Part shown: one piece after another, positions 3,928-64,000 of the stretch
Position numbering within the stretch: position 1 is the stretch's first letter
Layout of the letters: the number at the start of each line of letters is the position of its first letter
NCBI RefSeq assembly: GCF_963921235.1
Contig: NC_086108.1
Coordinates: 42,348,001 to 42,412,000, forward strand
Direction of reading: 5' to 3'
Origin: Mobula hypostoma
Taxonomy: Eukaryota
Length of the DNA: 64,000 nucleotides
The notes under the pieces: generated by a model
What the model was told of the DNA's origin: nothing
Databases searched by the model: none
The model's input: only the letters and a program-made list of their open reading frames with translations
Program-made: the position numbers and the translations under genes

Positions 3928-4416
3928 GTAACTAATAGCTTTCATTTTTAAGGACCTTCTTCTGTTGGAGATGGAGTCAATTACTCGTAAGTCATTTTTA
4001 GAGTTTATTAATGTCATTGAGTGCAACTGCCAATGTAGAAAGATAACAGGTCATGCAAAAAAGGCCATACATCAGCAGAAGACCCATTAGTGTCCTGGAG
4101 TGAAAAGGTGGGTGTGATGATGGGTTTTGCTTTCAAATTCTCACTGTCTCCCACCCTCTCTCTAACCCCATCCCTGTGAAAATGAAAATTACGTTAAAAC
4201 TCGTTATATGTTCTTTCCTGGTTCAGCTTTAGGTATTCGCAAACAAAGTTCAAGACCACAAGAAAACAATTTGTTAGAATTAGCACAAATTTAATTCAGG
4301 AAGAAAAAAACAAATGTCTACAGTAGTAGCAGTACAGAAATCAAAATAATACTTATCATTCACTAAGAGAGCTGATCTGGAAGGGGCCATGGATCTGACA
4401 ACCTCACACACAGCCT

Positions 4417-5712
4417 AAACACAAAATAATCTGCAGATGCTGGGGTCAAAGCAACACTCACAACACGCTGGGGGAACTCAGCAGGTCGGACAGCATCCGT
4501 AGAAAAGATTGGTCAACGTTTCGGGCCGGAACCTTTCATCAGGACTGTAGAGGGAAGGGGCAGAGGCCCTATAAAGAAGGTGGGGGGAGGGTGGGAAGGA
4601 GAAGGCTGGTAGGTTCCAGGTGAAAAACCAGTAAGGGGAAAGATAAAGGGGTGGGGGAGGGGAGGCAGGGAGGTGATAGGCAGGAAAGGTGAAGAAAGAA
4701 TAGGGGAAAACACAATGGGTAGTAGAAGGAGGCGGAACCATGAGGGAGGTGATAGGCAGCTGGGGGAGGGGACAGAGTGACATAGGGATGGGGGAAGGGA
4801 GGGGGAGGGAATTACCGGAAGTTGGAGAATTCTATGTTCACACCAAGGGGCTGGAGACTACCTAGATGGTATATGAGGAGTTGCTCCTCCAACCTGAGCT
4901 TAGCCTCATCGTGGCAGTAGAGGAGCGGAGGTGCTCGACGAAGGACTGTTTGGGGCCCTGAATGGTGGCAAGAGAGGAGGTGTAGGGACAGGTGTAGCAC
5001 TCAGGGCCCCAAACAGTCCTTCCAGGTGAGGCAACATTTCACTTGTGAGTCTGTTGGGGTCATCTATTGCATCCAGTGCTCCCGGTGCGGCCTCCTCTAC
5101 ATCGGTGAAACCCGATGCAGATTGGGGGACCGCTTCGTCGAGCACCTCTGCTCCGACCGCCAAAACAGACAGGATCTCCCGGTAGCCACCCACTTCAACT
5201 CTGCTTCCCATTCCCATTCAGATATTTTCATACATGGCCTCCTCTACTGCCATGATGAGGCTAAACTCAGGTTGGAGGAACAACACCTCATATACCGTCT
5301 AGGTAGTCTCCAGCCCCTTGGTATGAACACAGAATTCTCCAACTTCCGGTAATTCCCTCCCCCTCCTTTCCCCTATCCCTATTTCACTCTGCCACCTCCC
5401 CCAGGTGCCTACCACCTCCCTCATGGTTCCGTCTCCTTCTACTACCCATTGTGTTTTCCCCTATTCTTTCTTCACCTTTCCTGCCTATCACCTCCCTGCC
5501 TCCCCTCCCCCACCCCTTTATCTTTCCCCTTACTGGTTTTTCACCTGGAACCTACCAGCCTTCTCCTTCCCATCCTCCCCCCACCTTCTTTATAGGGCCT
5601 CTGCCCCTTCCCTCTACAGTCCTGATGAAGGGTTCCAGCCCGAAATGTCGACCAATCTTTTCCACGGATGCTGCCCGACCTGCTGAGTTCCCCCAGCGTG
5701 TTGTGAATGTTG
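4417..5712. mobile_element. Penelope-like element fold-back insertion with a GIY-YIG endonuclease fragment
   Basis: ORF 5026-5352 reads VIYCIQCSRCGLLYIGET...EH...PVATHFN...LEEQHLIYRLGSLQPLGMN. An inverted copy lies at 4417-5000. Perfect 14-bp TSD ctcacacacagcct at 4403-4416 and 5713-5726. Confidence 0.9.
5616..5653 (+). ncRNA. Minimal type-I hammerhead ribozyme motif in the Penelope 3' end
   Basis: cagtc-CTGATGA-agggttccagccc-GAAA-TGTC-gacc. The inverted partner at 4511-4547 (-) reads cagtc-CTGATGA-aaggttccggccc-GAAA-CGTT-gacc. Confidence 0.65.
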
Positions 5713-6288
5713 CTCACACACAGCCTGTTTTTTTTCTTTCTTTCTCTGTCTGTCTCTCTCACTCTCTGTCTCTGTCTCTGTCTAACTGACTCAACATACT
5801 CTGACTCTTGACGCACTGTTATTAGCCATCAGCCATGACCTAGCCTAGGAGAAAAGTCTCTTCACCCTTGCACCAAGAAGCTGCCCTTTATGCCCCTTCA
5901 AAACCCCTCACACTGGTACTTTTTCATGCATTTGGTACCTGCACCTGCACAATGACCTCACCTTCCCGTGAAAAAGCATGTTTTTCACCATTTTCCACTG
6001 TTATGGCTATAGACTTGTACTCCCTTAACTTTCTCAAAACATCGCTTTGGACTGGTTCTCTTGTACTTTCTCAATCCCACTCCAAGCTAACACTGTTTTG
6101 TCTTACAGTCTTTCATTTTATTTTAGCATATAACAAGGAGAAACCACATTAAGTTTTTCCTTACACCCTGCCCCTCAGACAATGCTCTTTTACAGAAACA
6201 AGTGAATAGTACTTTAAAGAAGTAAACATTAAATTTGCTGCTTAGCTGTTTTATATTCGTGTTGACTCATGTGCTCACTCTTTTCTAG

Positions 6289-8857: not shown

Positions 8858-10264
8858 GTATAGAGCTTGGTAATGTTTTCCCATTGCAGCCTTTTACTTT
8901 CAGTCATTCAACATGTGAAAAGGTTGTCAAGGTGAGTTTGCAAAGAATCACACAGAATAAGTAGCCCAGAGTAGGATGTTTGACTCAGCTGATCAAGCAC
9001 TAGCTCTCCAGACAAATGTAGTCATATATTGTACTGTACAGTTAAATAAGTAAAGAACATCCCTATTCTGAAATCATGGTGCAAAAATTGTAGATGCTTC
9101 ATTCTCCCTTGTCTTCAACTAGAAATGCAGAGTGGATTAAGCATCTCCAACACCTTTGAGATTCCCTCCATGCTTTTAGCCGGACTTCAACCACAGAGCT
9201 GACAAAAAAAGAGATCAGTGCACTGAATACTTAAACTAGTATCATCTCTAACAATATGCTGCTAATGGTAATCCAGAACCAGATACATGTGCAACCGACC
9301 TTTTGATATAGTTAAGTATCAGTGTGCAATGTTATCTGTCTATGATCTGTCCACAGAAGAACAAATTCAATCTGGCCAATTACAACTCATCAATCTACTA
9401 TTTTCATTAGCAATATGACAAATAATGTTCATGAACGTCCGGTGGAGCTCAACTTGCTAATGATCAAAACGTAGACTTAGTTTGAATTTCAACAGCGCCA
9501 ATCATGACCAGTTCTCATGATGGCCTTGGTCCAAACGGTATGAATTCTCAAAAAGAAGGAAGAGTAATAAGTGACTGCCTTTGAATTCAAGGCAGATTTG
9601 CTAGTTGGTATCATGCTGCTCTGTTATTGCACTTTTCTTCAATGGCTTCAGTGATGTCAGATGTGAGAATATTCCTTCTTGATCGACCATTGTTCATTTC
9701 CATATATTTGCTAAGTGATGATCATATTCCTTTTCGAACAAAAGCTTAAGCATTTCCTCTTTTCATTCAACTAGCATTGCCAAAATCCCCAATCTTGCTT
9801 ATCCTGGGGGTGTAGTTTGGGGGAATGGGATAGTTGAAGATCAGAAGTATTAACTGGAGAGAAAATTGTGGCCTTGAGCAGTGCAGAAGTTGTGTATTCT
9901 CCAGCCAGTGGTTGACTAGCTGGCTTCCAAATCTTTACCATTATTGACAAAATAGAAATGAGTTTCTTTGACCAGATTAGTTGGAAAAATGCAAACTTAA
10001 TTACATCTGAGATTTTTAAAAAAGTAGCCAGTTGGACAGATGGCCATCATCAACTTTAACAATGTATTCATTTCGCATCCAGCACAACATAACTGCAGAA
10101 CAAATGGTCTGAAAAATGGACTTTAGTAACTCATGGCTTCTTAGCCACCTGCTCCCAGTTACTCCCTGTAATATCGGTAAGAACAAGAGCAGCATACTTC
10201 ATGAGGTGTTACCACACACAAATTCTCCTCCAGGGTGCACATCAGTCTGAACTTGGAATGTATC

Positions 10265-10418
10265 CAAGCAACACACACAAAATGCCGGAGGAACTCAGCA
10301 GGCCAGGCAGCATCTCTGGAAAAGAGTAAACAGTCAACGTTTCGGGCCAAGTTCCTTCAGCATTTTGTGTGTGTTGCTTGAATTTCCAGCATCTGCAGAT
10401 ATTCTCTTGTTTGTGATC
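10265..10418. mobile_element. Short Penelope-derived fold-back insertion
   Basis: caagcaacacacacaaaatgc / gcattttgtgtgtgttgcttg inverted arms. Flanking duplication ggaatgtatc at 10255-10264 and 10419-10428. Confidence 0.8.
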
Positions 10419-14054: not shown

Positions 14055-17014
14055 CAATATTTTTCAAAAGTTTTAGGCACATATATAGGGTGCCTTTTGT
14101 ATTAGTCAGAGTGGAGCAGAGAGCAAGTTTGTAAATCTGGTGGGAGTAAGGGATGTTGGGAATGGTGAAGGTGGAGTGCAGAGGGAGGGGTGTGGGATAG
14201 GTGGAAAATAAGGAGTGCCAAGGGTGAGGTGTGGCATGGGTGCAGACACACCAGACAAGGTCATTTGATTCCAAACAATTGGTTTATTGACAATTACAGA
14301 ACGTCTCTCTGGTGCTTTCTGCTCTCTCCCATCATCCTTCTCCTTTTCCCAAACATAGAAACATAGAAAACATAGAAAATAGGTGCAGGAGTAGGCCATT
14401 CGGCCCTTTGAGCCTGCACCGCCATTTATTATGATCATGGCTGATCATCCAACTCAGAACCCCGCCCCAGCCTTCCCTCCATACCCCCTGACCCCCGTAG
14501 CCACAAGGGCCATATCTAACTCCCTCTTAAATATAGCCAATGAACTGGCCTCAACTGTTTCCTGTGGCAGAGAATTCCACAGATTCACCACTCTCTGTGT
14601 GAAGAAGTTTTTCCTAATCTCGGTCCTAAAAGGCTTCCCCTCTATCCTCAAACGGTGGCCCCTTGTTCTGGACTTCCCCAACATCGGGAACAATCTTCCT
14701 GCATCTAGCCTGTCCAATCCCTTTAGGATCTTATACGTTTCAATCAGATCCCCATTCAATCTTCTAAATTCCAACGAGTACAAGCCCAGTTCATCCAGTC
14801 TTTCTTCATATGAAAGTCCTGCCATCCCAGGAATCAATCTGGTGAACCTTCTTTGTACTCCCTCTATGGCAAGGATGTCTTTCCTCAGATTAGGGGACCA
14901 AAACTGCACACAATACTCCAGGTGTGGTCTCACCAAGGCCTTGTACAACTGCAGTAGTACCTCCCTGCTCCTGTACTCGAATCCTCTCGCTATAAATGTC
15001 AGCATGCCATTCGCCTTTTTCACCGCCTGCTGTACCTGCATGCCCACTTTCAATGACTGGTGTATAATGACACCCAGGTCTCGTCGCACCTCCCCTTTTC
15101 CTAATCGGCCACCATTCAGATAATAATCTGTTTTCCTATTTTTGCCACCAAAGTGGATAACTTCACATTTATCCACATTAAATTGCATCTGCCATGAATT
15201 TGCCCACTCACCCAACCTATCCAAGTCACCCTGCATCCTCTTAGCATCCTCCTCACTGCTAACACTGCCACCCAGCTTCGTGTCATCCGCAAACTTGGAG
15301 ATGCTGCATTCAATTCCCTCATCCAAGTCATTAATATATATTGTAAACAACTGGGGTCCCAGCACTGAGCCTTGCGGTACCCCACTAGTCACTGCCTGCC
15401 ATTCTGAAAAGGTCCCGTTTATTCCCACTCTTTGCTTCCTGTCTGCTAATCAATTCTCCGCCCACACCAATACCTTACCCCCAATACCGTGTGCTTTAAG
15501 TTTGCACACTAATCTCCTGTGTGGGACCTTGTCAAAAGCCTTTTGAAAATCCAAATATACCACATCCGCTGGTTCTCCCCTATCCACTCTATTAGTTACA
15601 TCCTCAAAAAATTCTGTGAGATTCGTCAGACATGATTTTCCTTTCACAAATCCATGCTGACTTTGTCCGATCATTTCACCGCTTTCCAAATGTGCTGTTA
15701 TCACATCCTTGATAACTGACTCCAGCAGTTTCCCTACCACCGACGTTAGGCTAACCGGTCTATAATTCCCCGGTTTCTCTCTCCTTTTTTAAAAAGTGGG
15801 GTTACATTAGCCACCCTCCAATCCTCAGGAACTAGCCCAGAATCTAACGAGTTTTGAAAAATTATCACTAATGCATCCACTATTTCTTGGGCTACTTCCT
15901 TAAGCACTCTAGGATGCAGACCATCTGGCCCTGGGGATTTATCTGCCTTCAATCCCTTCAATTTACCTAACACCACTTCCCTACTAACATGTATTTCACT
16001 CAGTTCCTCCATCTCACTGGACCCTCTGTCCCTTACTATTTCTGGAAGATTATTTATGTCCTCCTTAGTGAAGCCAGAACCAAAGTAATTATTCAATTGG
16101 TCTGCCATGTCCTTGCTCCCCATAATCAATTCACCTGTTTCTGTCTGCAGGGGACCTACATTTGTCTTTACCAGTCTTTTCCTTTTTACATATCTATAAA
16201 AGCTTTTACAGTCCGTTTTTATGTTCCCTGCCAGTGTTCTCTCATAATCTTTTTTCCCCTTCCTAGTTAAGCCCTTTGCCCTCCTCTGCTGAACTCTGAA
16301 TTTCTCCCAGTCCTCAGGTGAGCCACTTTCTCTGGCTAATTTGTATGCTTCTTCTTTGGAATTGATACTATCCCTAATTTCTCTTGTCAGCCACGGGTGC
16401 ACTACCTTCCTTGATTTATTCTTTTGCCAAACTGGGATGAACAATTGTTGTAGTTCATCCATGCAACCTTTAAATGCTTGCCATTGCATATCCACCGTCA
16501 ATCCTTTAAGTGTCATTTGCCAGTCTATCTTAGCTAATTCATGTCTCATACCTTCAAAGTTACCCCTCTTTAAGTTCAGAACCTTTGTTTCTGAATTAAC
16601 TATGTCACTCTCCATCTTAATGAAGAATTCCACCATATTATGGTCACTCTTACCCAAGGGGCCTCTCACGACAAGATCGCTAATTAACCCTTCCTCATTG
16701 CTCAAAACCCAGTCCAGAATAGCCTGCTCTCTAGTTGGTTCCTCGACATGTTGGTTCAAAAAACCATCCCACATACATTCCAAGAAATCCTCTTCCTCAG
16801 CACCTTTACCAAACATGATTCCCCTTTCCCTGTCCCCCTTCCCTGTTTCAGTCAACAATAGAGACCCAATCAGAATCAGGTTTATCATCACTCACAAATG
16901 GCACAAAATCAATTTTTTTTTGCAGCAGTACAATGTAATACATGACATAACAAAAGTCTTAAACACCCTAGATACATATATATAATATGTGCCGAAGACT
17001 TTTGCACAGTACTG
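14055..17014. mobile_element. Tc1-type non-autonomous element split by a CR1 insertion
   Basis: Degenerate TIRs caatatttttcaaaagttttaggcacatat (~14055) and atatgtgccgaagacttttgcacagtactg (ending 17014). The host sequence rejoins across the CR1. Confidence 0.55.
14357..16808 (-). mobile_element. Young 5'-truncated CR1 LINE (partial endonuclease plus reverse transcriptase ORF2)
   Basis: Three ORF pieces (16891-15746, 15740-15450, 15428-14454) contain RT motifs YLDFQKAFDKVPH, SGVPQGSVLGP and KFADD. One frameshift at ~15780 and one in-frame stop at 15450. (tttctatg)n tail, and ccaaacat duplicated at 14349-14356 and 16809-16816. Confidence 0.95.
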
Positions 17015-24570: not shown

Positions 24571-25499
24571 AGCATCACTTTAATCAAATTCAATGTTTTT
24601 CCTATTACAAATTTCAAGTGTAATTACAAGAGAGTGATGGTGATGTATATTGGACAGGGACAGAAATATCCTTGGTTTTCTCCTTGTGTTTGGCTTTGTA
24701 CAAAGGTACACATTAAAAGTTCTGCCCTGAATTTCAAATTAGAAATTGTACTTTTGGTATATAAATAATTTTCCAGAAAAACTTGCATTTACTAATTGAT
24801 ACATTAGTAAGATTTTAAGGGATATTTTATTGTTTAACATCTGAACTTGTGCCAGAAGTCTCATGTGTGGAGTTCAGTTTTTCTTTACAATTAGACATAA
24901 TCGTGATTAAGCTAATGTTTATATAACAGATGAACAGATTTTTTTTAAATGAAGAAGTAAAACAGAAAATTCTGGCTTTAAGAGAAAAAAACAAGGTTCT
25001 GGTGTGTTAAATTTTCATATGAGTAAACTTCACAATGAAATGTATTTTGAGCTTCAGAGAAGGGCACATACGATTGGACTAAAAGCTATGTAATTAGAAA
25101 TAATGAAAGAAGATTGAATGTGATTTTTTAAAAATTGGAGCTGTGAGATACAAGCTGAAGAAACAAAAGTGGAGACCATAGCAATCTGAAAGAGAAACAG
25201 TGTCGGAAATGCTCAGACATCCTCTGTGGAGATGGAAATAAAGTTAATGTTTCATGTTAGTGGTCCTTCATGGACAAACCGATACTGTTAAAATTAATGT
25301 GAAGTCGTGAGGGCTATTATGCGCCCTAAAAAGCAGATTAACAGCAGTAAACAGGACAACACACATTTGTGCGACGGACAGCATGAGTCAAGTGCTATAC
25401 AAGTTACTGGACACGGGATTTTATCTGTGCATTCATCTCCCGAATTCATTCACCACCTCCCATTTGTGTAGCTTGCCGACTGATCATCTGCCTTAAACA

Positions 25500-25657
25500 C
25501 AAACAACACGAATTCTGCAGATGCTGGAAATTCAAGCAACATACATCAAAGTTGCTGGTGAACGCAGCAGGCCAAGCAGCATCTATAGGAAGTGGCGCAG
25601 TCGACGTTTCAGGCCGAGACCCTTCGTCAGGACTAACTGAAGTTAGTATAGAAGTAT
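25500..25657 (-). mobile_element. Penelope 3'-end mini-insertion carrying a hammerhead motif
   Basis: Nearly identical to the 3' end of the Penelope at 62905. Perfect 14-bp TSD atctgccttaaaca at 25486-25499 and 25658-25671. Confidence 0.88.
25598..25634 (-). ncRNA. Minimal type-I hammerhead ribozyme (best-preserved copy)
   Basis: Reverse complement: agtc-CTGACGA-aggGTCTCGGcct-GAAA-CGTC^gactg. Stem I agtc/gact, stem II AGG/CCT, palindromic ACGT in place of stem III, GUC cleavage triplet. Confidence 0.75.
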
Positions 25658-25794
25658 ATCTGCCTTAAACATTTCGTTTGATGAAAAGCTGGCAACCTGA
25701 AATATTAATGTTGTTTCTAACGACAAGTGTTGCCTACCCTGATGAGTGTAACCATTTTCTGTTTTAATGTATGATTTAAACATACTGTCCAGCT

Positions 25795-25945
25795 ATCACA
25801 CACACACCTGCTGGAGGTGGCTCGGACCGAAACGTCGACTGCTTATTCAACCCCATAGATGCTGCCTGACCTGCAGATTTCCTCCAGCATTTTGTGTGTG
25901 TTGCTTGGATTTCCAGTATTGTAGTATCTCTTGTGTTTATGATTT
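25795..25945 (+). mobile_element. Short Penelope-derived fragment
   Basis: ctcggaccgaaacgtcgactg...gatgctgcctgacctgc...cctccagcattttgtgtgtgttgc. Confidence 0.7.
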
Positions 25946-30000: not shown

Positions 30001-30123
30001 TGAATTAATTTTTAAGAAGGCTCCAAAATAAAGCATAGCAGAAAAAATGTGTAAATTTGGAGATAATTGCTAATTCAGGACTTAAAATTAGTTAAGAGAA
30101 AGGACACGAATTTGAATTACAAA

Positions 30124-30256
30124 CAAGAGAAAATCTGAAGATGCTGGAAATCCAGCAACACACACAAAATGCTGGAGAAACTCACAGGCCAGGCAGCATC
30201 TAGGAAAAGAGTAGATGCTGCCTAGCCTGCTGAGTTCCAGCATTTTGTGTGTGTTG
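30124..30256. mobile_element. Short Penelope-derived fold-back insertion
   Basis: Inverted arms caacacacacaaaatgctgga / tccagcattttgtgtgtgttg. 13-bp duplication tttgaattacaaa at 30111-30123 and 30257-30269. Confidence 0.8.
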
Positions 30257-31109
30257 TTTGAATTACAAATGTATGATCGTCAGAATATGATATGGGCTAT
30301 ATCCTTAGGAAAACTGCTGGAAGCTGGATCTTTGATTGTTTTTAATAAGGCGGCACATAGATACTTAATAAGCAAAGGGTAAAAGGTTGTTGTATGTAAA
30401 AGGGAATACAAAGTTAGTTTATTATCAAATCTGCCATGATCTCATTAAGTTGTAGAGCAAGCTTGATGGGTCAATTGGCCTATTCCTGCTCTTGACTTCT
30501 AAGTCAGCATTCTTTTTAGTGACATTGATTGAGGGACAAATAGTACTTCACTGGACAGGCCATTTGGACTATAATGTGCCAGTGTTGTTGGCAATTTATA
30601 CTAAATGTCCTCCTCCACTGTATCAATTCCCTTATATTCATGTGTCTATCTAAAAGCCTCTTAAACTCTACCAAACCACTGTTTCCACTACTGCACTACT
30701 ACCCATTCCAGACACTTGACACTCTTGGCATAAACAACTTGCTCTCACATGGCTTTTAAACTACCCACCCACCCAACTTAAAAGCATGTTCTCTGTTGTT
30801 TGACTTTTCTACCCTGGGGGAAAAGATTCTGTCCACCCTATCTATTGCCCTTAATAATTTTTAAAACTTCTATCGGGTCTTTCTTCAGCCTCCAAGCTCT
30901 AGGAAGAACAACACAAGTTTGTCCAAAATTTCCTTATAATGCCTACTCTCTAATCCAGGCAGTATCCTGCTGAACCTCTTCTTCATTCTTTCCACAGTCT
31001 CCACATCCTTCCAATAATAAGGCAATCAGAACGGCACGCAGTATTCCAAATGTGTTCTGATTAGCTTCATATAGCTGCACCATGACTTCCTTGCTTTTAT
31101 AATAATCAA

Positions 31110-32296: not shown

Positions 32297-32537
32297 TAAT
32301 GAAGGGAATTGTGCCATATACCACCTTTATCACCTTATCTGCTTGCATAGCCACTTTCAATGAACTATGGACCCAAGCCCCAAGATCCTTCTATACCTCA
32401 GTGTTGTCACAGAGTATACCATTAATTATAACCTTTCATTTGACCTCTCAAAGTGGAACACCTCACACTTTCCTAGATTACTCTTTCTGCCAAGATCTGT
32501 AGGTGATCTATATCCCACTGTATTCTCTGATTGTCTT

Positions 32538-32688
32538 AAATCACAAACAAGAGAAAGTCTGCAGATGCTGGAAATCCGAGCAATACACACAAAATGCTGG
32601 AGGAACTCGGCAGGTCAGGCAGCATCTATGGAAAGGGGTACAGTCAATGAGTTGGCCCGCTGAGTTCCTCCAGCATTTTGTGTGTGTA
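32538..32688. mobile_element. Short Penelope-derived fold-back insertion
   Basis: Inverted arms acacacaaaatgctggaggaactc / gagttcctccagcattttgtgtgt. Degenerate 14-bp duplication tctctgattgtctt / tcactgatagtctt. Confidence 0.75.
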
Positions 32689-36930: not shown

Positions 36931-38056
36931 CTGGAACTAGGCTGAGTTGTTATGCTTGGTAAACTTTAGTTCTTTATAATAAAATAAAGAATTAAAATTT
37001 TCATGTTTGTTAATGGGAGTCAAGAGTTTGTTTCTTCAAGAGAAGGAAGCAACATCTGCAACTGAGGCTCTAAAGAGAGATTGTACTTTATTTTTAATTG
37101 GGTAAAAATATTGATGAATATTGAACAAAGCAGGTAAATGGGAGGCTTAAGTTCATACACTTTTGTTAAATAAAATGTGTTTTTTGAATGTTCAGAAACA
37201 GATATTGTCTTTTGGAACTTGAGATATGAAACTCTAGGAATGTTTTTATATTTATAGTCATTTCCTCTGCATGTCTGAACTATATGCTTGGCCAGTTCAA
37301 ATGGAGCACTTAAAGTGACTTCCATCATCAAAATCTATGTTTTTCTTTAAGAAAACTGCTATGCCAAGACTTTGGGGCTATTGATAAAATAAGTTATAAT
37401 ACTTTAATGCTGTTGTTTGTCTAATTATAATTTATGATTTGGTTATTTTATTTGTATAATGGGGTGTATATTTCAGTGTGGTAAGGGTAAAAATATTTTT
37501 TGTAGAGTATAAGGTTTGATCTTAGCTAGGAGTAATTTTCAATCCTACACAAAAAACATTTAAAAACAATTAGTTTTAACTTGTAAGAAAAAATAATGAA
37601 CATTCTCAATTAAACACAATAGTTATCAACCAAAAATAAACAAGGTTATAAAGGGTAGATATTTCAGTCTATTTTGCTTGCATGGAATTTCCAAGTTTGC
37701 TCACTCTTGAAGAAATGATGATGCTTCTGTGCAAGATTGCTGACAATGCCCAGGTTGTAGTATGTTTAGCTAATATTTGCATCTGATCCACAAGGAAAAC
37801 ATGAAGATAAAAGGGTTCGTCAACCACAGCAACATTTGTATTTATTAGAACATAGTACTGTACAGCACAGTAGAGTACAAGCCCTTCAGCCCATGATGTT
37901 GTGCCAGCCTTTTAACCCAATCCAAAATTAATCTGGCTCTTCCCTCTCGCATATCCCTCATTTTTCTTTCATCCATCTGCCTATTTAAGAGGGTCTTAAT
38001 CTCCGTAATGTATCTGCCTCTACTACCACCCCCGGCAATGCATTCCATGCACTTAC

Positions 38057-38560
38057 CATTCTCTGACATCTCCCTCCCCATTCTTGATCTTTCTGTCTCC
38101 ATTACTGGAGAAAAACTGTCAACCGACATTTTTTATATACTTACTGATTCCCACAGTTATCTTAACTATACCTCTTCCTACCCTATCCTCTGTAAAAATG
38201 ATATTTCCTTTTCTCTGCTCCAGCACCGCCACTGTATCTGTTCCCAGGATGCGGCTTTCCTTTCCAGGATATTAGGCAGGGTTTTTCTCACTCCAGTATT
38301 GATGCTGTCCTCACCTGCACCTCCTCCTTTTCCCGAACATCCGTGCTCACCCCATCTTCCTGCCGCTTTAACTGTGATGGAGTTCCTCTTGTCCTTACCT
38401 ACCACTGCATCAGCCTCTGCATCCAACGCATCATACTCCACAACTTCTGCCACCTCCAAAACGATCCTTCCATGATTCCCTTGTCCATTCGTCCCTCTCC
38501 ACTAATCTCCCTCCCAGCACTTATCTCTGGAGGCAGCCCAAGTGCTATACCTGTCCCTTC
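38057..38560 (+). mobile_element. Penelope-like reverse transcriptase/thumb fragment, fused to a CR1 tail (37845-38055, - strand)
   Basis: SLPILDLSVSITGEKLSTDIFYILTDSHSYLNYTSSYPILCKNDISFS and GVPLVLTYHCISLCIQRIILHNFCHLQNDP are typical Penelope motifs. Confidence 0.75.
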
Positions 38561-49987: not shown

Positions 49988-51503
49988 CAGTTGCAAGAAA
50001 TAGTTTGTGAACCCTTTGCAGTTACCTGATTTTCTGCATTAATTACCCATAAAACGTCGTCTGCTCTTCATCTAAGTCACAATAATAGGCAAACACAATT
50101 TGCCTAATAATAACACACAGACAATTGTACTTTTCATGTTTTCATTGAACACATTATTTAATCATTCATAGTTCAGGCTGGAAAAAAGTATGTGAACCCT
50201 TGTATTTAATAACTGGTAAAACTTCCTTCCAGCAATAACCTCCACCAAATATTTACTGTAGCTGCTGATCAGACTTGCACAAAAGCAAGGAGGAATTTTA
50301 GACCATTCCTCCATGCAAAACTGTTGAAGTGCTTCAATATTTCTGGGATACCTTGCATGAACAGCCCTCTTCAGGCCACAGCATTTCAATTTGGTTAAGA
50401 TCTGGATATTCCAAAGTTTGAATTATCTTCTTTTTAAACCATTCTGTTGTTGATTTATTCTCATGTTTTGGATCATTGTCTTGTGCCTTATCCAACTACT
50501 ATTAAGCTTCAGGTGATGGACTGTTACACTGACATTCTCCTGTAAAATGTCCTGATACAATTTTGAATTCAATGTTCCCTGGACATTTGCAAGCTGTCCA
50601 GACCCTGAGGGAGCAAAGCAGCCCCAAACCACGTTGCTCCTTCCACCATGCTTCACAGTTGAGATGAGGTTTTGGTGTTGGTGTGCAGTGCCTTTTTTCC
50701 TCCAAACATAGTAGTATGCATTTGTGCCAAAAAGTTTAATTTTTGTCTCATCTGCCCTCTGAACATCGTCCCAAAGGCATTGTGGAACATCTTTTGCAAA
50801 GTTGATACATGCAGCAATGTTTTTTTTTGGAGAGCAGTGATTTCCTCTGTGTCTTTCCAGGTTTTTCTTATATTGGAGTCATGAACAGGGACTCTAGCAA
50901 GTTCTAGAGATTTCTGCAGGTCTTTTGCTGTTATCCTTGGGTTCTTTTTCACCTCCTTCAGCATTGCACGTTGTGCTCTTGGTCTGATCTTTGTAGGCTG
51001 CCCACTCCGAGGGAGAGTAGCAACAGTACTGAATTTCCTCCCTTTGTAGACAATTTCTCCTACAGTAGACTGATGTATCTTTACAATTCTTCTTCTAAAG
51101 TCCTCTGAAAGTTGTTTTGATTGAGGCATGGTGCAGATAAACAGATCTTTCTTGAGAAGAGCGGGCTCTTTCAGTAACCTGAGATTGTGTGTCTTTTTGA
51201 TAGGGCAGGGTACCTCTACATCTCACACCTCCAATCTCATCTCATTGTTTAGGACACCTGACTCTAAATAGCTTTTGTAGAAGATAATGCCTCAGAGGTT
51301 CACATACTTACTTTTTACTTAGACTGTGATTGTTCAAATGGAGTACTCAGTATTGATGCAAAGTACAATTGTTTGTATATTATTTAGACAGATTGTGTTT
51401 GTCTATTATTGTGACTTAGATGAAGATCAGACCACATTTTATGAGTAATTAACGCAGAAAACTAGGTAATTGCAAAGGGTTTACCAACTTTTTCTTGCAA
51501 CTG
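49988..51503 (-). mobile_element. Tc1-family DNA transposon with long TIRs and a frameshifted transposase
   Basis: TA|cagttgcaagaaa...tttcttgcaactg|TA, with roughly 200-bp inverted repeats. Transposase pieces MPQSKQLSEDFRRRIV...LPRSGQPTKI...KNPRITAKDLQ, KHGGRSNVVWGCF and [28 protein letters not shown]. Confidence 0.92.
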
Positions 51504-52038
51504 TAGGTCCCAGTAGCTTTGTGATGACCTTACACCAGCAAGGCGGTCTGATTCCTTCAATATCTCCTGTCAGGTTAATGTATCTACCATTTTTCCATTT
51601 TTAATTGCTAACCCCTGTCCTGAGCCTCCATGCAAATCCAACAGCGGGTTCCTCTGTCATATTGTCACCACTGTGTCTCCTCTCTGGTTTCTGTTGACTG
51701 CCATTTGTGGAACAATTTTAATGATTACTCTTCAGAGCTTCAATGAAATGTTTTTCTGGGCTTTTTTCTTTTAAATGATCACAGATGAAAATTTTTAAAA
51801 CTGTGCTGCTTTTGATATAATTAGTACATGCTGCTGCCAAATGTTTAAACTGCTGTGTTAATTTTGAAGAGAAAAGTATTTAATAATAGACTGAATTGTT
51901 GCATTGTATATGGTTACAATTTTGTATTTTATCAGTAAACGTCAATTGCAACTGCAGTTTCCATCTTGGAAATGTTTAATTCCTTTGATGCTGTGAGAAT
52001 ACTGTATGTGGGTGTCAGACTAATAGTCAAGTTGAGAA

Positions 52039-52662
52039 TGCAAACACGAGGAAATCTGCAGATGCTGGTATTTCAAGTAGCACACATAAAAGTGCTGGTG
52101 AACGCAGCAGGCCAGGCAGCACCTCTAGGAAGAGGTACAGTTGACGTTTCGGGCCGAGACCCTTCGTCAGGACTAACTGAAGGAAGAGCTAGTAAGAGAT
52201 TTGAAAGTGGGAGGGGGAGGGGGAGATCTGAAATGATAGGAGAAGGCAGGAGGGGGAGGGATGGAGCCAAGAGCTGGAGAGAGGGAGAAAAAGGAGTTTA
52301 TATACACACATTCTTTTTCTCTCTCTCCTTTTCTCCCTCTGTCCCCCTCACTATACCCCTTGCCCATCCTCTGGTTTTCCCCCCTCCCCCTTTTCTTTCT
52401 CCCTAGGCCTCCTGTCCCATGATCCTCTCATATCCCTTTTGCCAATCACCTGTCCAGCTCCTGGCTCCATCTCCCCCCCCCCACCCCCCATCTTCTCCTA
52501 TCATTTCGGATCTCCCCCTCCCCCCCCCCACTTTCAAATCTCTTACTAGCTCTTTTTTCAGTTAGTCCTGACAAAGGGTCTTGGCCCAAAATGTTGACTG
52601 TACCTCTTCCTAGAGATGCTGCCTGGCCTGCTGCATTCACCAGCAACTTTTATGTGTGTTGC
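52039..52662. mobile_element. Penelope 3'-end fold-back insertion with two hammerhead motifs
   Basis: Arms ~52080-52278 and ~52453-52662 are inverted. Perfect 14-bp TSD agtcaagttgagaa at 52025-52038 and 52663-52676. Confidence 0.9.
52138..52176 (-). ncRNA. Minimal hammerhead ribozyme motif
   Basis: Reverse complement: agtc-CTGACGA-agggtctcggccc-GAAA-CGTC-aactg. The partner at 52564-52600 (+) has core mutations (CTGACAA, CAAAA). Confidence 0.65.
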
Positions 52663-53055
52663 AGTCAAGTTGAGAAGCCTATTTACAAGTTGAACTATGT
52701 GCTATGAATTTCACAACTTTAAATATTTCTTATTAGAAAAATCATAGCTAGAGTTTAAAAGTAAAATAAATATAAAAATACTGGAGATACTCAATGAGTC
52801 ATGCAACATCTTTAGAAAGAGAAAGAATTAAGGTTTTGGATCAGAGACCATTCAACGGGTGTATTCCCAGCTTTTCCTGTTTTAATTTTAGATTTTTTGT
52901 ATCTATATTTTTTCTTTTCTATTTAAAAGAACTGTGCAAAAATCGTAATCTATTAATGTCCTGTATGTCTTATTTGTGAACAGATTTCAAGGAGATCTTT
53001 CTGTTTGTTGTGAGAATACCCTGGTACTTGTGTTTAACCTGTTAAAAGAGTATAA

Positions 53056-55216: not shown

Positions 55217-56068
<852 letters not shown>

Positions 56069-56923
56069 TAATTCTGAATTAATTCAAATCATTATTTATT
56101 TGGTAAAAGGTGTTATATATCGTGATGTGTCTACAATTATGCTGTTAAAGTTCAGAGCAGACCATAGAAATTGGATGTTTTTATGCTCTCTATTATATAC
56201 AATTAGAAATTTCTTATGTGAGCAGTTAAAATAATGTTCCTAGCCAAGCATTTGAGAAATGAAGAGTAAATACTTACTCAAGGTGAAAAATCTGCATTTG
56301 AGTAATGAATAGTGACATTTAATCTAGGTTGGTTTTAGTAAGGATCACAAATTTAATGTGATTGAAGGTGGTGCTTTAATCCTTTAGCATCTTTATTCTC
56401 ACTTTCTCTCCCCGTAAAAAGATATATCTGGCAAAAAATAAATTGTCATCCCTAATTTTTTCAAATTTACCAGTTGTTCCCAAATTTGCTTGCTTTGTCC
56501 TGTTTCCTTGTTCTTCTTTCTCAACTTAGACTATAAAGCTATAGAAATATTTATAGTTTACTATAATAGGATATACGCTTATTTAAGTTCTTGATCTTCC
56601 TGTTTTTGATAATTGAGTTCTTTGGCCCACAATCAGTTTTGTTCCAAGTGCCTAAATATAATTTTGGTTCTGCACATCAGTGCACTGCTACTGCTTGTTA
56701 AATAGGGGCAAATCAATATGTTCACCAACAGATGATTGCTTGGAGGCAAAATTAAACCATAGGTTTCCTTATTGGTCTGTAAGATTTAAAGAGAGAGACA
56801 GAGTGAGTCATGCCATTCAGTTAGATCGTTTGTGATCCTTGAATTCATTCACGTTTCTGTCCCTCCCTGTATACGTTGATTTTCTTTGAGTCCAAAAATC
56901 TATTTATTTCCATTTTAAACATA

Positions 56924-61304: not shown

Positions 61305-61445
61305 GTAGTCCCAATAAAAAGTCTTGGCCCGAAATGTCGGCTGTTCATTCATTGCCGTAGATGCTGCCTGACCTGCTGAATTTCTCCAGCATTTTATGTG
61401 CGTTGCCTTGGATTTTCAGCATCTGCAGATTTTGTCACGTTTGAA
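61305..61445 (+). mobile_element. Old Penelope-derived 3' fragment
   Basis: gtcttggcccgaaatgtcggctg...gatgctgcctgacctgctga...cagcatctgcagat. Confidence 0.7.
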
Positions 61446-62882: not shown

Positions 62883-62904
62883 TAAGTTACAACTCTGGAA
62901 CAAA

Positions 62905-64000
62905 CTTAAACAACAGGAATTCTGCAGATGCTGGAAATTCAAGCAGCACACATAAAAGTTGCTGGTGAACGCAGCAGGCCAGGCAGCATCTCTAGGAAGA
63001 GGTGCAGGCGACGTTTCAGGCCGAGACCCTTCGTCAGGACTAACTGAAGGAAGAGTGAGTAAGGGATTTGAAAGTTGGAGGGGGAGGGAGAGATCCAAAA
63101 TGATAGGAGAAGACAGGAGGGGGAGGGATGGAGCCAAGAGCTGGACAAGTGATAGGCAAAAGGGATACAAGAGGATCATGGGACAGGAGGTCCAGGAAGA
63201 AAGACAAGGGGGGGGGAAACCAGAGGATGGGCAAGGGGTATATTCAGAGGGAGAAAAAGGAGAGTGAGAGAAAGAATGTGTGTATAAAATTAAGTAACAG
63301 ATGGGGTACGAGGGGGAGGTGGGGCATTAGCGGAAGTTAGGGAAGTCGATGTTCATGCCATCAGGTTGGAGGCTACCCAGACGGAATATAAGGTGTTGTT
63401 CCTCCAACCTGAGTGTGGCTTCATCTTTACAGTAGAGGAGGCCGTGGATAGACATGTCAGGTGGAATTAAAATGTGTGGCCACTGGGAGATCCTGCTTTC
63501 TCTGGCGGACAGAGCGTAGGTGTTCAGCAAAGCGGTCTCCCAGTCTGCGTCGGGTCTCGCCATTATATAAAAGGCCACATCGGGAGTACCGGACGCAGTA
63601 TATCACCCCAGCCGACTCACAGGTGAAGTGTTGCCTCACCTGGAAGGACTGTTTGGGGCCCTGAATGGTGGTAAGGGAGGAAGTGTAAGGGCATGTGTAG
63701 CACTTGTTCCGCTTACACGGATAAGTGCTAGGAGGGAGATCAGTGGGGAGGGATGGGGGGGACGAATGGACAAGGGAGTCGCGTAGAGAGCGATCCCTGC
63801 GGAATGCAGAGGGGTGGGGGAGCGAAAGATGTGCTTAGTGGTGGGATCCCATTGGAGGTGGCGGAAGTTACGGAGAATAATATGTTGGACCCGGAGGCTG
63901 GTGGGGTGGTAGGTGAGGACCAGGGGAACCCTATTCCGAGTGGGGTGGCGGGAGGATGGAGTGAGAGCAGATGTACGTGAAATGGGGGAGATGCGTTTAA
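62905..64000 (-). mobile_element. Penelope-like element 3' region (frameshifted GIY-YIG), running off the window end
   Basis: RQHFTCESAGVIYCVRYSRCGLLYNGETRRRLGDRFAEHLRSV...PVATHFNS plus DMSIHGLLYCKDEATLRLEEQHLIFRLGSLQPDGMNIDF. Hammerhead motif at 63005-63041. Confidence 0.9.
63005..63041 (-). ncRNA. Minimal hammerhead ribozyme motif
   Basis: Reverse complement: agtc-CTGACGA-agggtctcggcct-GAAA-CGTC-gcctg. Confidence 0.65.

Follow-up and report, generated by a model that had tools for sequence, protein, structure and literature searches.

A solitary 158-bp hammerhead insert in Mobula hypostoma is very probably a shortened copy of an abundant Penelope-like element whose copies often end at the ribozyme's front edge

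The window analyzed here is a stretch of 64,000 nucleotides from the Mobula hypostoma genome (NCBI RefSeq assembly GCF_963921235.1, contig NC_086108.1, positions 42,348,001 to 42,412,000 of the forward strand), and its minus strand carries, at 25500–25657, a 158-bp insert built around a minimal hammerhead motif. Judging by how its sequence compares with genomic relatives, the insert is very probably a 5′-shortened copy drawn from the common RNA pool of an abundant Penelope-like element, not the product of a retrozyme-like lineage or of one resembling short interspersed elements (SINEs). Minimal hammerheads in Penelope elements, 5′ truncation, inverted copies, a one-sided tail, and internal initiation of reverse transcription are already in print. 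What is specific here is the number of intact cores (86,682), the Neptune-like host element, and a preferred end of its copies at the front edge of the motif. A limited literature search found no prior description of Penelope hammerheads in cartilaginous fish or of a pile-up of copy ends at a ribozyme edge.

In the 158-bp insert, element sequence begins approximately 12 nt ahead of the hammerhead core and reaches 131 nt past its start. At the 5′ side, a 15-nt filler of unrelated sequence (25643–25657, delimited by BLAST alignment) separates the first element-homologous base from the target-site duplication (TSD). The 14-bp TSD noticed in an earlier, sequence-only reading of this DNA is present, with atctgccttaaaca read at 25486–25499 and again at 25658–25671. 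Over element positions −12 to +137, counted from the core start, the insert is 97–98.6% identical to the genome copies L106 and L084 (BLAST). Its tail (25500–25602, minus strand) consists of the 5′ untranslated stretch of the element plus the first 14 codons; the ATG, placed from full-length copies, lies at 25542–25540, 88 nt after the core start, and the tail stops at the distal one of two preferred 3′ ends. The same construction is seen in other simple short copies, which have a flanking repeat of at least 8 bp in 12 of 18 cases (10–15 bp in 11 of those 12), 3′ ends at +92 to +97 or +127 to +132, and, commonly, fillers of 7–17 nt. Two head-to-head insertions in the window, hereafter fold-backs, at 4417–5712 and 52039–52662, likewise have TSDs of 12–14 bp. 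Because its edges, filler, and repeat length match those of the simple short copies and of the window fold-backs, the anatomy of the 158-bp insert is typical. The final 6–7 bases of the left TSD (25493–25499) are similar to the element just past its distal 3′ end (gtttaa), and the alignment to L106 extends to 25493; microhomology between target and template RNA may therefore underlie this junction.

To compare short and long insertions, we aligned the 130 nt shared by copies with no more than 50 nt upstream of the core (n = 44) and copies with at least 190 nt (n = 45). In the 14 polymorphic columns, the smallest Fisher p-value was 0.083, and divergence from the majority string was 3.1% for short and 3.9% for long copies. 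Short and long copies thus appear, from this alignment, to originate from the same RNA pool. In the mechanism we propose, target-primed reverse transcription would begin at the internal start site of the element, and copying would end approximately 12 nt in front of the hammerhead to leave the 158-bp insert. As they hold no sequence upstream of the ribozyme, short copies are probably dead on arrival.

The Penelope-like identity of the family, proposed in the sequence-only reading, is borne out by its coding sequence. In the window, a reading frame at 4921–5352 on the plus strand, directly upstream of the motif at 5616, matches the GIY-YIG domain (E = 3e-4). In the genome copy L084, a single frame of 547 residues contains both a reverse transcriptase (RVT_1, E = 1.7e-5) and a GIY-YIG match (E = 4.3e-4), each below its Pfam cut-off. 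L049 and L040 also have a GIY-YIG domain ahead of the core in each of their two arms, and the L040 match (23.6 bits) is the one that exceeds the Pfam cut-off. Ahead of the GIY-YIG domain, L084 has the linker CKRNKCYTC (CX4CX2C), and this motif, the sole basis for the clade assignment, suggests that the host element is Neptune-like. The candidate frame upstream of L081 was rejected as part of the host element: it belongs to an unrelated long interspersed element, with apurinic/apyrimidinic endonuclease and reverse transcriptase, into which the copy had inserted.

The architecture of the full unit was derived from longer copies, which place a 5′ hammerhead 648 nt before the truncation point of L084 and a 3′ hammerhead of the same sense 2868 nt after it, giving a unit of ~3516 nt. 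Two hammerhead matches on contig C2 lie 3515 nt apart, and the unit is ~3.5 kb long. In four of five full-length loci, the ATG that opens the long frame lies 88 nt past the core start; the frame spans at least 843 residues in two of these loci and, with its reverse transcriptase and GIY-YIG regions, terminates ~300 nt ahead of the next hammerhead. It follows from the frame start at +88 that each insertion closes with a 'tail' belonging to the next unit, namely its 5′ untranslated stretch and first codons. The 3′ ends fall into two classes, at about +92 to +97 and +127 to +132, some 35–40 nt apart. In the terminal repeat with its long-terminal-repeat-like arrangement (pseudo-LTR), upstream repeats begin at distances of 127, 423, and 592 nt or more from the 5′ hammerhead. 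None of 16 long copies extended by 4.5 kb reached the 5′ hammerhead; all were truncated or folded back.

The family is very abundant in the 3.48 Gb that we searched. An exact 28-mer of the core occurs 55,586 times (reversed control, 0), and the 86,682 intact cores compare with 107 in the reversed control, in agreement with the earlier suggestion that such motifs may be numerous in this genome. Tails number 88,971, and reading-frame starts just past the tail 686, so less than 1% of copies span the whole unit.

Where copies end at the 5′ side was studied in two samples. The exact-core sample comprises the first 93 of 100 listed places on contig C1; the tail-anchored sample, obtained with an exact 23-mer of the tail and hence independent of motif state, comprises 91 of the first 100 listed places. 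In the exact-core sample, 44 copies extend 0–48 nt upstream of the core, 4 extend 91–129 nt, 17 extend 198–509 nt, 10 extend 581–948 nt, and 18 reach the end of the 963-nt reference. The 44 copies that stop within 48 nt represent ~27 times the density of the next 900 nt. In the tail-anchored sample, the number of 5′ ends per nucleotide climbs from 0.024 at −899 to −200 through 0.047 (−199 to −51), 0.20 (−50 to −26), and 0.53 (−25 to −11) to 1.5 at −10 to −1 and 1.25 at 0 to +7; it is 0.25 at +8 to +27, 1.0 at +28 to +30 (n = 3), and 0.385 at +31 to +56. The 18-nt peak from −10 to +7 contains 25 of the 91 copies, which is 3.8 times the density of +8 to +56 (p = 2e-5) and 13 times that of −11 to −199.

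For roughly a third to half of all copies, the 5′ end lies no more than a few tens of bases from the ribozyme's front edge, and many of them are fold-backs. Among 37 copies ending no more than 25 nt before the core, 13 have simple ends and 24 are fold-backs, whose second arm consists of that motif or tail in reverse complement; genome-wide, tight head-to-head pairs with cores within 30 nt occur at 1,453 loci. The sequence-only reading had proposed that a plot of insertion lengths would separate a discrete short family from random 5′ truncation. The distribution is indeed not continuous, and ends are sharply concentrated at the ribozyme's front edge, but the peak is a preferred end of ordinary copies rather than a separate element. 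The internal 5′ hammerhead was tested with 30 copies that contain the frame start: 17 reach this hammerhead, and 5 of the 17 end at −25 to +7. The other 12 extend upstream by 58 to more than 850 nt, and 3 of those 12 are template-jump junctions. The stop fraction of 5/17 at 5′ hammerheads compares with 33/73 at 3′ hammerheads (Fisher p = 0.28).

Several side observations concern these ends. A minor cluster of 5′ ends or junctions lies 90–150 nt before the core (4/93 in the exact-core sample and 5/30 in the internal-hammerhead sample, plus L103 at −127) and could mark a second RNA start. Fold-back junction types recur at independent loci: among 50 listed on C1, nine have cores separated by a 2-nt spacer, and five join an arm ending at −16 to an arm ending 2–4 nt before the core. 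At L145 (C68:50200300-50201500), positions ~389–811 hold three 33-nt units and ~3.5 71-nt units in the same sense, each of which starts 7 or 44 nt ahead of the core and stops at GAAA (+24). The insertion begins with these units and ends in a normal hammerhead and tail, a structure suggestive of template jumps repeated around the motif or else of a very small RNA copied in rolling fashion. A cap-derived extra G was seen at the 5′ end of none of the five simple copies whose duplication abuts the element. Splicing was considered as a cause of the pile-up and rejected: the stretch is present in all long copies, no common upstream exon precedes the short copies, and no donor was found.

The hammerhead itself was located in the window with the pattern CTGAYGA-N5-30-GAAACGTC, using 100 dinucleotide-preserving shuffles as control. 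Exact matches to CTGAYGA-N13-GAAACGTC lie at 25603–25630, 52143–52170, and 63010–63037, all on the minus strand, and 0 of 100 shuffles gave a match; the recurrence of the motif described earlier is upheld by these three sites, with decayed versions at the other places named. All three exact sites have the full conserved core (C3 U4 G5 A6 N7 G8 A9, G12 A13 A14, A15.1, U16.1, H17). In the 158-bp insert, the minimal hammerhead motif lies at 25598–25634, where the minus strand reads AGTC-CTGACGA-A-GGGTCTCGGCCT-GAAA-CGTC-GACT. The 5′ strand of helix I (AGTC, 25634–25631) is followed by the core box CTGACGA (25630–25624), an unpaired A (25623), stem II GGGT/GCCT with loop CTCG (25622–25611), GAAA (25610–25607), CGTC (25606–25603), and the 3′ strand of helix I (GACT, 25602–25599); the predicted cut lies between 25603 and 25602. 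Helices I (AGTC/GACT) and II can pair around the core. There is no helix III, GAAACGTC having no loop, and the palindromic ACGU at 15.1–16.1 permits a dimer. Together with the unpaired A before stem II, these are several of the published features of the minimal, dimer-type Penelope hammerhead, the type to which the motif had been assigned. Cleavage after GUC would be expected only in a dimer or with protein help, by analogy with published relatives.

Of the copies in the window, only the one at 25.5 kb retains an intact core, helix I, and ACGT palindrome. A single mismatch affects the 3′ strand of helix I in each of the 52143 and 63010 copies; the motif at 4511–4547 (minus strand) retains the core with GUC changed to GUU; that at 5616–5653 (plus strand) has a disrupted ACGU palindrome that reads GAAATGTC; and that at 52564–52600 (plus strand) is mutated at G8 and G12. 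At ~10331, ~25821, and ~61321, the motif is present in part, as the sequence-only reading had it in calling these places remnants, but ~10331 and ~25821 are fold-back junctions, in which an inverted tail abuts a hammerhead truncated within the core. The 52143 copy has G-C as its 10.1–11.1 pair, and the 63010 copy has G-U, like the 25.5-kb copy; position 11.1 is T in most cores among the genome matches listed, giving G-U in most young copies.

Two subfamilies, A and B, had been distinguished by their stem II and flanks, with the core kept in both. The division stands for the upstream flank, which cannot be aligned: over 244 nt upstream of the motif, identity is 0.55, against 0.57 for shuffles. 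It does not hold for stem II, where the paired positions are identical and only loop II differs, or for the following 60 nt, which are conserved (identity 0.68 versus 0.50 for shuffles). The motif has an identity of 0.69 versus 0.48, so that the core is conserved above the upstream flank, as had been anticipated, but no better than the tail. Directly before helix I, both subfamilies have a pyrimidine run followed by CAG (25635–25660 and 63042–63070 on the minus strand, 5600–5616 on the plus strand), and subfamily A additionally has a branch-point-like cttactcac; the stretch resembles a 3′ splice site or an initiator.

A number of findings weigh against the picture of a truncated copy bearing a genuine hammerhead. 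The 10.1–11.1 pair of the 25.5-kb copy is G-U, where G-C is usual. The Rfam hammerhead families gave no match in the window at the gathering score or at E up to 10, and none in the 121-nt stretch 25560–25680, a result that is expected for a motif without helix III. Covariation is absent, as all 100 cores listed among the matches are point variants of one stem II, and the hammerhead fold therefore rests on likeness to the published motif. The hand-built monomer hammerhead has a free energy of −6.8 kcal/mol, whereas the predicted optimum, at −11.7 kcal/mol, is an inactive fold that pairs the core GACG with CGUC; likewise, a domain-swapped double hammerhead reaches −11.1 kcal/mol, compared with −31.7 for an extended duplex. 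Finally, both samples of copy ends come from the first 3.4–4.6 Mb of one contig, and, by requiring an exact core or an exact tail, they favor young copies.

We infer that copy ends pile up either because an RNA has its 5′ end there or because the copying enzyme stops there. The first cause is quite possible, if somewhat short of an even chance. Template RNAs would start just before the hammerhead, by transcription from the pseudo-LTR at an initiator-like site, TCAGTT, 8 nt before the core. A short leader-hammerhead-tail RNA would then be produced from any copy retaining this region, and the enzyme, initiating internally, would copy it to its end or fold back there. A start at this point accords with the peak at −10 to +7, with the 24 of 37 near-edge copies that turn back there and the 1,453 tight fold-backs of the genome, and with the retention of the pyrimidine run and CAG by both subfamilies even though their upstream 250 nt cannot be aligned. 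Contigs of four public runs, aligned to L106, break at −4/−8 and at +126 to +133; their status as RNA is a guess, and they only repeat boundaries already present in the DNA. A study of Drosophila virilis Penelope places an internal, TATA-less promoter in this region (PMC2377424), but there an intron separates helix I from the reported start, ~121 nt further upstream. The low stop fraction at internal hammerheads (5/17) also weakens the case for an RNA start, because coding RNAs that all started there would mostly end there. Moreover, the ends are spread over ~15 nt, and their mode is at −3 to −5 rather than −8.

The second cause, which we regard as possible but tentative, is a folded hammerhead, dimer, or bound element protein. 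On leaving the motif, the enzyme would then halt, jump to another template, or give way to second-strand priming, at a probability of ~0.3–0.45 per passage. The similar stop fractions at 5′ and 3′ hammerheads are in line with this cause, as are the template-jump products that repeat short units around the motif (the 33- and 71-nt units of L145, ending at GAAA) and the recurrent fold-back junctions described above. A protein is also presumed to bind nearby in Anolis, where the motif is protein-assisted (PMC11167929). Against this, a structured RNA should hinder the enzyme on its 3′ entry side, at about +30, yet the density at +8 to +27 is low, and no such stop is reported in the accessible portion of the in vitro work on the Anolis element. 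Joining the two causes, the front edge of the hammerhead could be a programmed boundary of Penelope replication, set by the start of a short RNA from every retained pseudo-LTR or by an enzyme that stops or turns back at a folded dimer with protein; we advance this as a tentative proposal. If it is true, the part of the motif would be not to cut RNA but to fix the 5′ limit of at least a third of ~90,000 insertions and to seed the head-to-head fold-backs characteristic of these elements.

The sequence-only reading had suggested that the 25.5-kb copy may represent a non-autonomous, retrozyme-like unit. In such a scheme, short units would form a separate SINE-like or retrozyme-like family with its own masters, mobilized in trans by the Penelope enzyme, perhaps through circular self-cleaved RNA. 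The short class is discrete (44 of 93 copies), a 2026 preprint derives animal retrozymes from Penelope pseudo-LTRs (Li et al., 10.64898/2026.07.22.740005), and rare tandems do exist, with 19 head-to-tail core pairs of 137–167-nt period genome-wide and a single array of 435-nt units. Exact cores, however, number 55,586 and tight fold-backs 1,453, and one of the 19 tandems (L112) is a triplicated fold-back and not a head-to-tail unit. Among the first 100 cores listed, those on the same strand are always at least 1.6 kb apart. No diagnostic substitution distinguishes short from long copies, the 5′ ends of short copies are scattered from about −25 to +7 with unrelated filler, and short copies have no upstream sequence able to act as a promoter. 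A separate family is thus very unlikely, and the suggestion of a retrozyme-like unit is not sustained. The 435-nt array, at 1086–2119 of L162 (C1:46046229-46049254), is retrozyme-like in form, with 2.4 units at 97% identity; it consists of an internally deleted element, in which a stretch ~126 nt ahead of the next hammerhead is fused to the frame start. Comparable junctions occur at different positions in L161 and L146 and so seem to be separate events.

Least probable of all, and hardly to be expected, is that short copies come from self-cleaved RNA with the 3′ cleavage product as the usual template: 3 of 91 copies fall in the +28 to +30 bin, two of them exactly at +28, and the fold-back arm at 32536–32645 adds a further case, but three compares with 0.98 expected from neighboring bins (p = 0.076), at most a hint of self-cleavage, none of the 30 copies in the internal-hammerhead sample starts there, the main peak lies 30 nt further upstream with the whole ribozyme retained, and in the Anolis study uncut RNA is the main template, with 0 reads ending at the cut site (PMC11167929).

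The remaining copies in the window illustrate the range of forms that the family takes. The subfamily B fold-back at 4417–5712 has a minus arm to 4925 and a plus arm from 4926, with a hammerhead in each (4511–4547 and 5616–5653) and the GIY-YIG frame (4921–5352, plus strand) noted above. One arm ends in a long tail and the other in a short one, and its 12–14-bp TSD lies at 4403–4416 and 5713–5726. The subfamily A fold-back at 52039–52662 joins a minus arm (52039–52281, element positions −111 to +134, core intact) to a plus arm (52297–52662, −265 to +94, core mutated) and is flanked by the 14-bp TSD agtcaagttgagaa at 52025–52038 and 52663–52676. MicroRNA-like Rfam matches near 52.2–52.4 kb were rejected, as they are really the GA/CT-rich hairpin of this fold-back. 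A long subfamily A copy (62902–64000, minus strand; core at 63010–63037), which is 5′-truncated or cut by the window, has at least 989 nt upstream of the core and reaches the GIY-YIG coding part by BLAST within the window.

Older and smaller copies comprise a fold-back at 10262–10413 (minus arm +5 to +100, plus arm +80 to +130); a partial copy at 25821–25939 on the plus strand (+12 to +130) with a short inverted piece ahead; a plus-strand copy at 61305–61432 with a decayed hammerhead and tail; a tails-only fold-back at 30120–30264, both arms of which begin at about +45; and the arm of an old fold-back at 32536–32645 on the minus strand, beginning at +28. The last two were found by BLAST and extend the earlier list of copies. 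The first base of the 32536–32645 arm is directly behind the predicted GUC cut site, as is that of sample copies L119 and L137. All four fold-backs in the window pair one long with one short tail.

Other features of the window are a diverged, older Penelope-like frame fragment at 38056–38559 (plus strand; 67–75% identical to the abundant family), a remnant of a reverse transcriptase frame at 14454–15449 (minus strand; RVT_1, E = 7e-13), and a remnant of the helix-turn-helix region of a Tc1/mariner-type transposase at 50423–51222 (minus strand). A frame at 55217–56071 on the plus strand contains a WDR47 cross-over region domain (E = 5e-31), so the window lies within a WDR47-like gene or next to one.

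Published work leaves the role of the hammerhead in Penelope-like elements unsettled: the cleavage described is weak or protein-assisted and is dispensable for insertion in vitro. The genome of M. hypostoma offers tens of thousands of young, near-identical copies. In the samples studied, their ends cluster at the motif's front edge, in many cases with a fold-back, and not at the cut site, which is a clue to where the template RNA starts or the enzyme stops. For annotation, the many 90–160-bp 'hammerhead units' found in genes of M. hypostoma are probably dead remains of a single transposon family, and they do not constitute a new class of ribozyme-bearing elements.

Animal systems that join hammerheads to retroelements provide the closest comparisons. 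Cervera and De la Peña reportedly described non-LTR retrozymes of animals in 2020 (PMC7229834). Such retrozymes share with the present insert a Penelope-derived type-I hammerhead and the lack of coding capacity (10.64898/2026.07.22.740005), but they are head-to-tail arrays that give circular RNA, whereas the 158-bp unit is solitary, with 19 period matches genome-wide and no lineage of its own. In D. virilis Penelope (Schostak et al. 2008, PMC2377424; Cervera 2014), the promoter region resides in the terminal repeat upstream of the hammerhead, transcription starts ~121 nt upstream of helix I, and the intron ends at the 5′ end of helix I. In M. hypostoma, a branch-point-like site, a pyrimidine run, and CAG occur at the same place, but the search for a splice donor among the copies was negative.

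Endonuclease-positive Penelope-like elements at large (Craig et al. 2021, PMC8557442) show the same heavy 5′ truncation, partial tandems, and adjacent inverted 5′-truncated copies with a tail at one end only. The preferred end at the ribozyme front edge is seen here and is not described in the accessible text of that study. A CX2-5CxxC linker between reverse transcriptase and endonuclease marks the Neptune and Nematis clades (PMC8557442). The Poseidon element PAc of Anolis carolinensis (Frangieh et al. 2024, PMC11167929) likewise has its hammerhead beside the frame start, although the frame of the present element, known from sequence alone and with a CX4CX2C linker of Neptune type, starts 60 nt behind the predicted cut site and that of PAc at stem II. 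PAc has two adjacent internal start sites of reverse transcription, the interval between them being an optional 30–40-bp tail, and uncut RNA is its main template (PMC11167929). The two 3′ end classes described here parallel those two start sites.

The nearest relatives of the motif are the minimal hammerheads of Penelope pseudo-LTRs, which are present in thousands as solo motifs or as close opposite-strand pairs (Cervera and De la Peña 2014, PMC4209133), and whose cleavage is weak, dimer-dependent, or protein-assisted (PMC4209133, PMC11167929). The agreement extends to the CUGANGA and GAAA boxes, a helix I of 4–5 bp, the unpaired base between 9 and 10.1, and the ACGU palindrome in place of helix III, as well as to the location in the terminal repeat of an element with reverse transcriptase and GIY-YIG domains and the occurrence as mostly solo motifs, sometimes in close opposite-strand pairs. 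The M. hypostoma motif differs in its stem II, which has 4 bp and a tetraloop compared with 7–8 bp in Schistosoma (PMC4209133), in its limited variation within the genome, and in the G-U at 10.1–11.1 of most young copies. It also differs in abundance: the 86,682 intact cores amount to about ten times the highest number in PMC4209133, the ~9,000 copies of Xenopus tropicalis.

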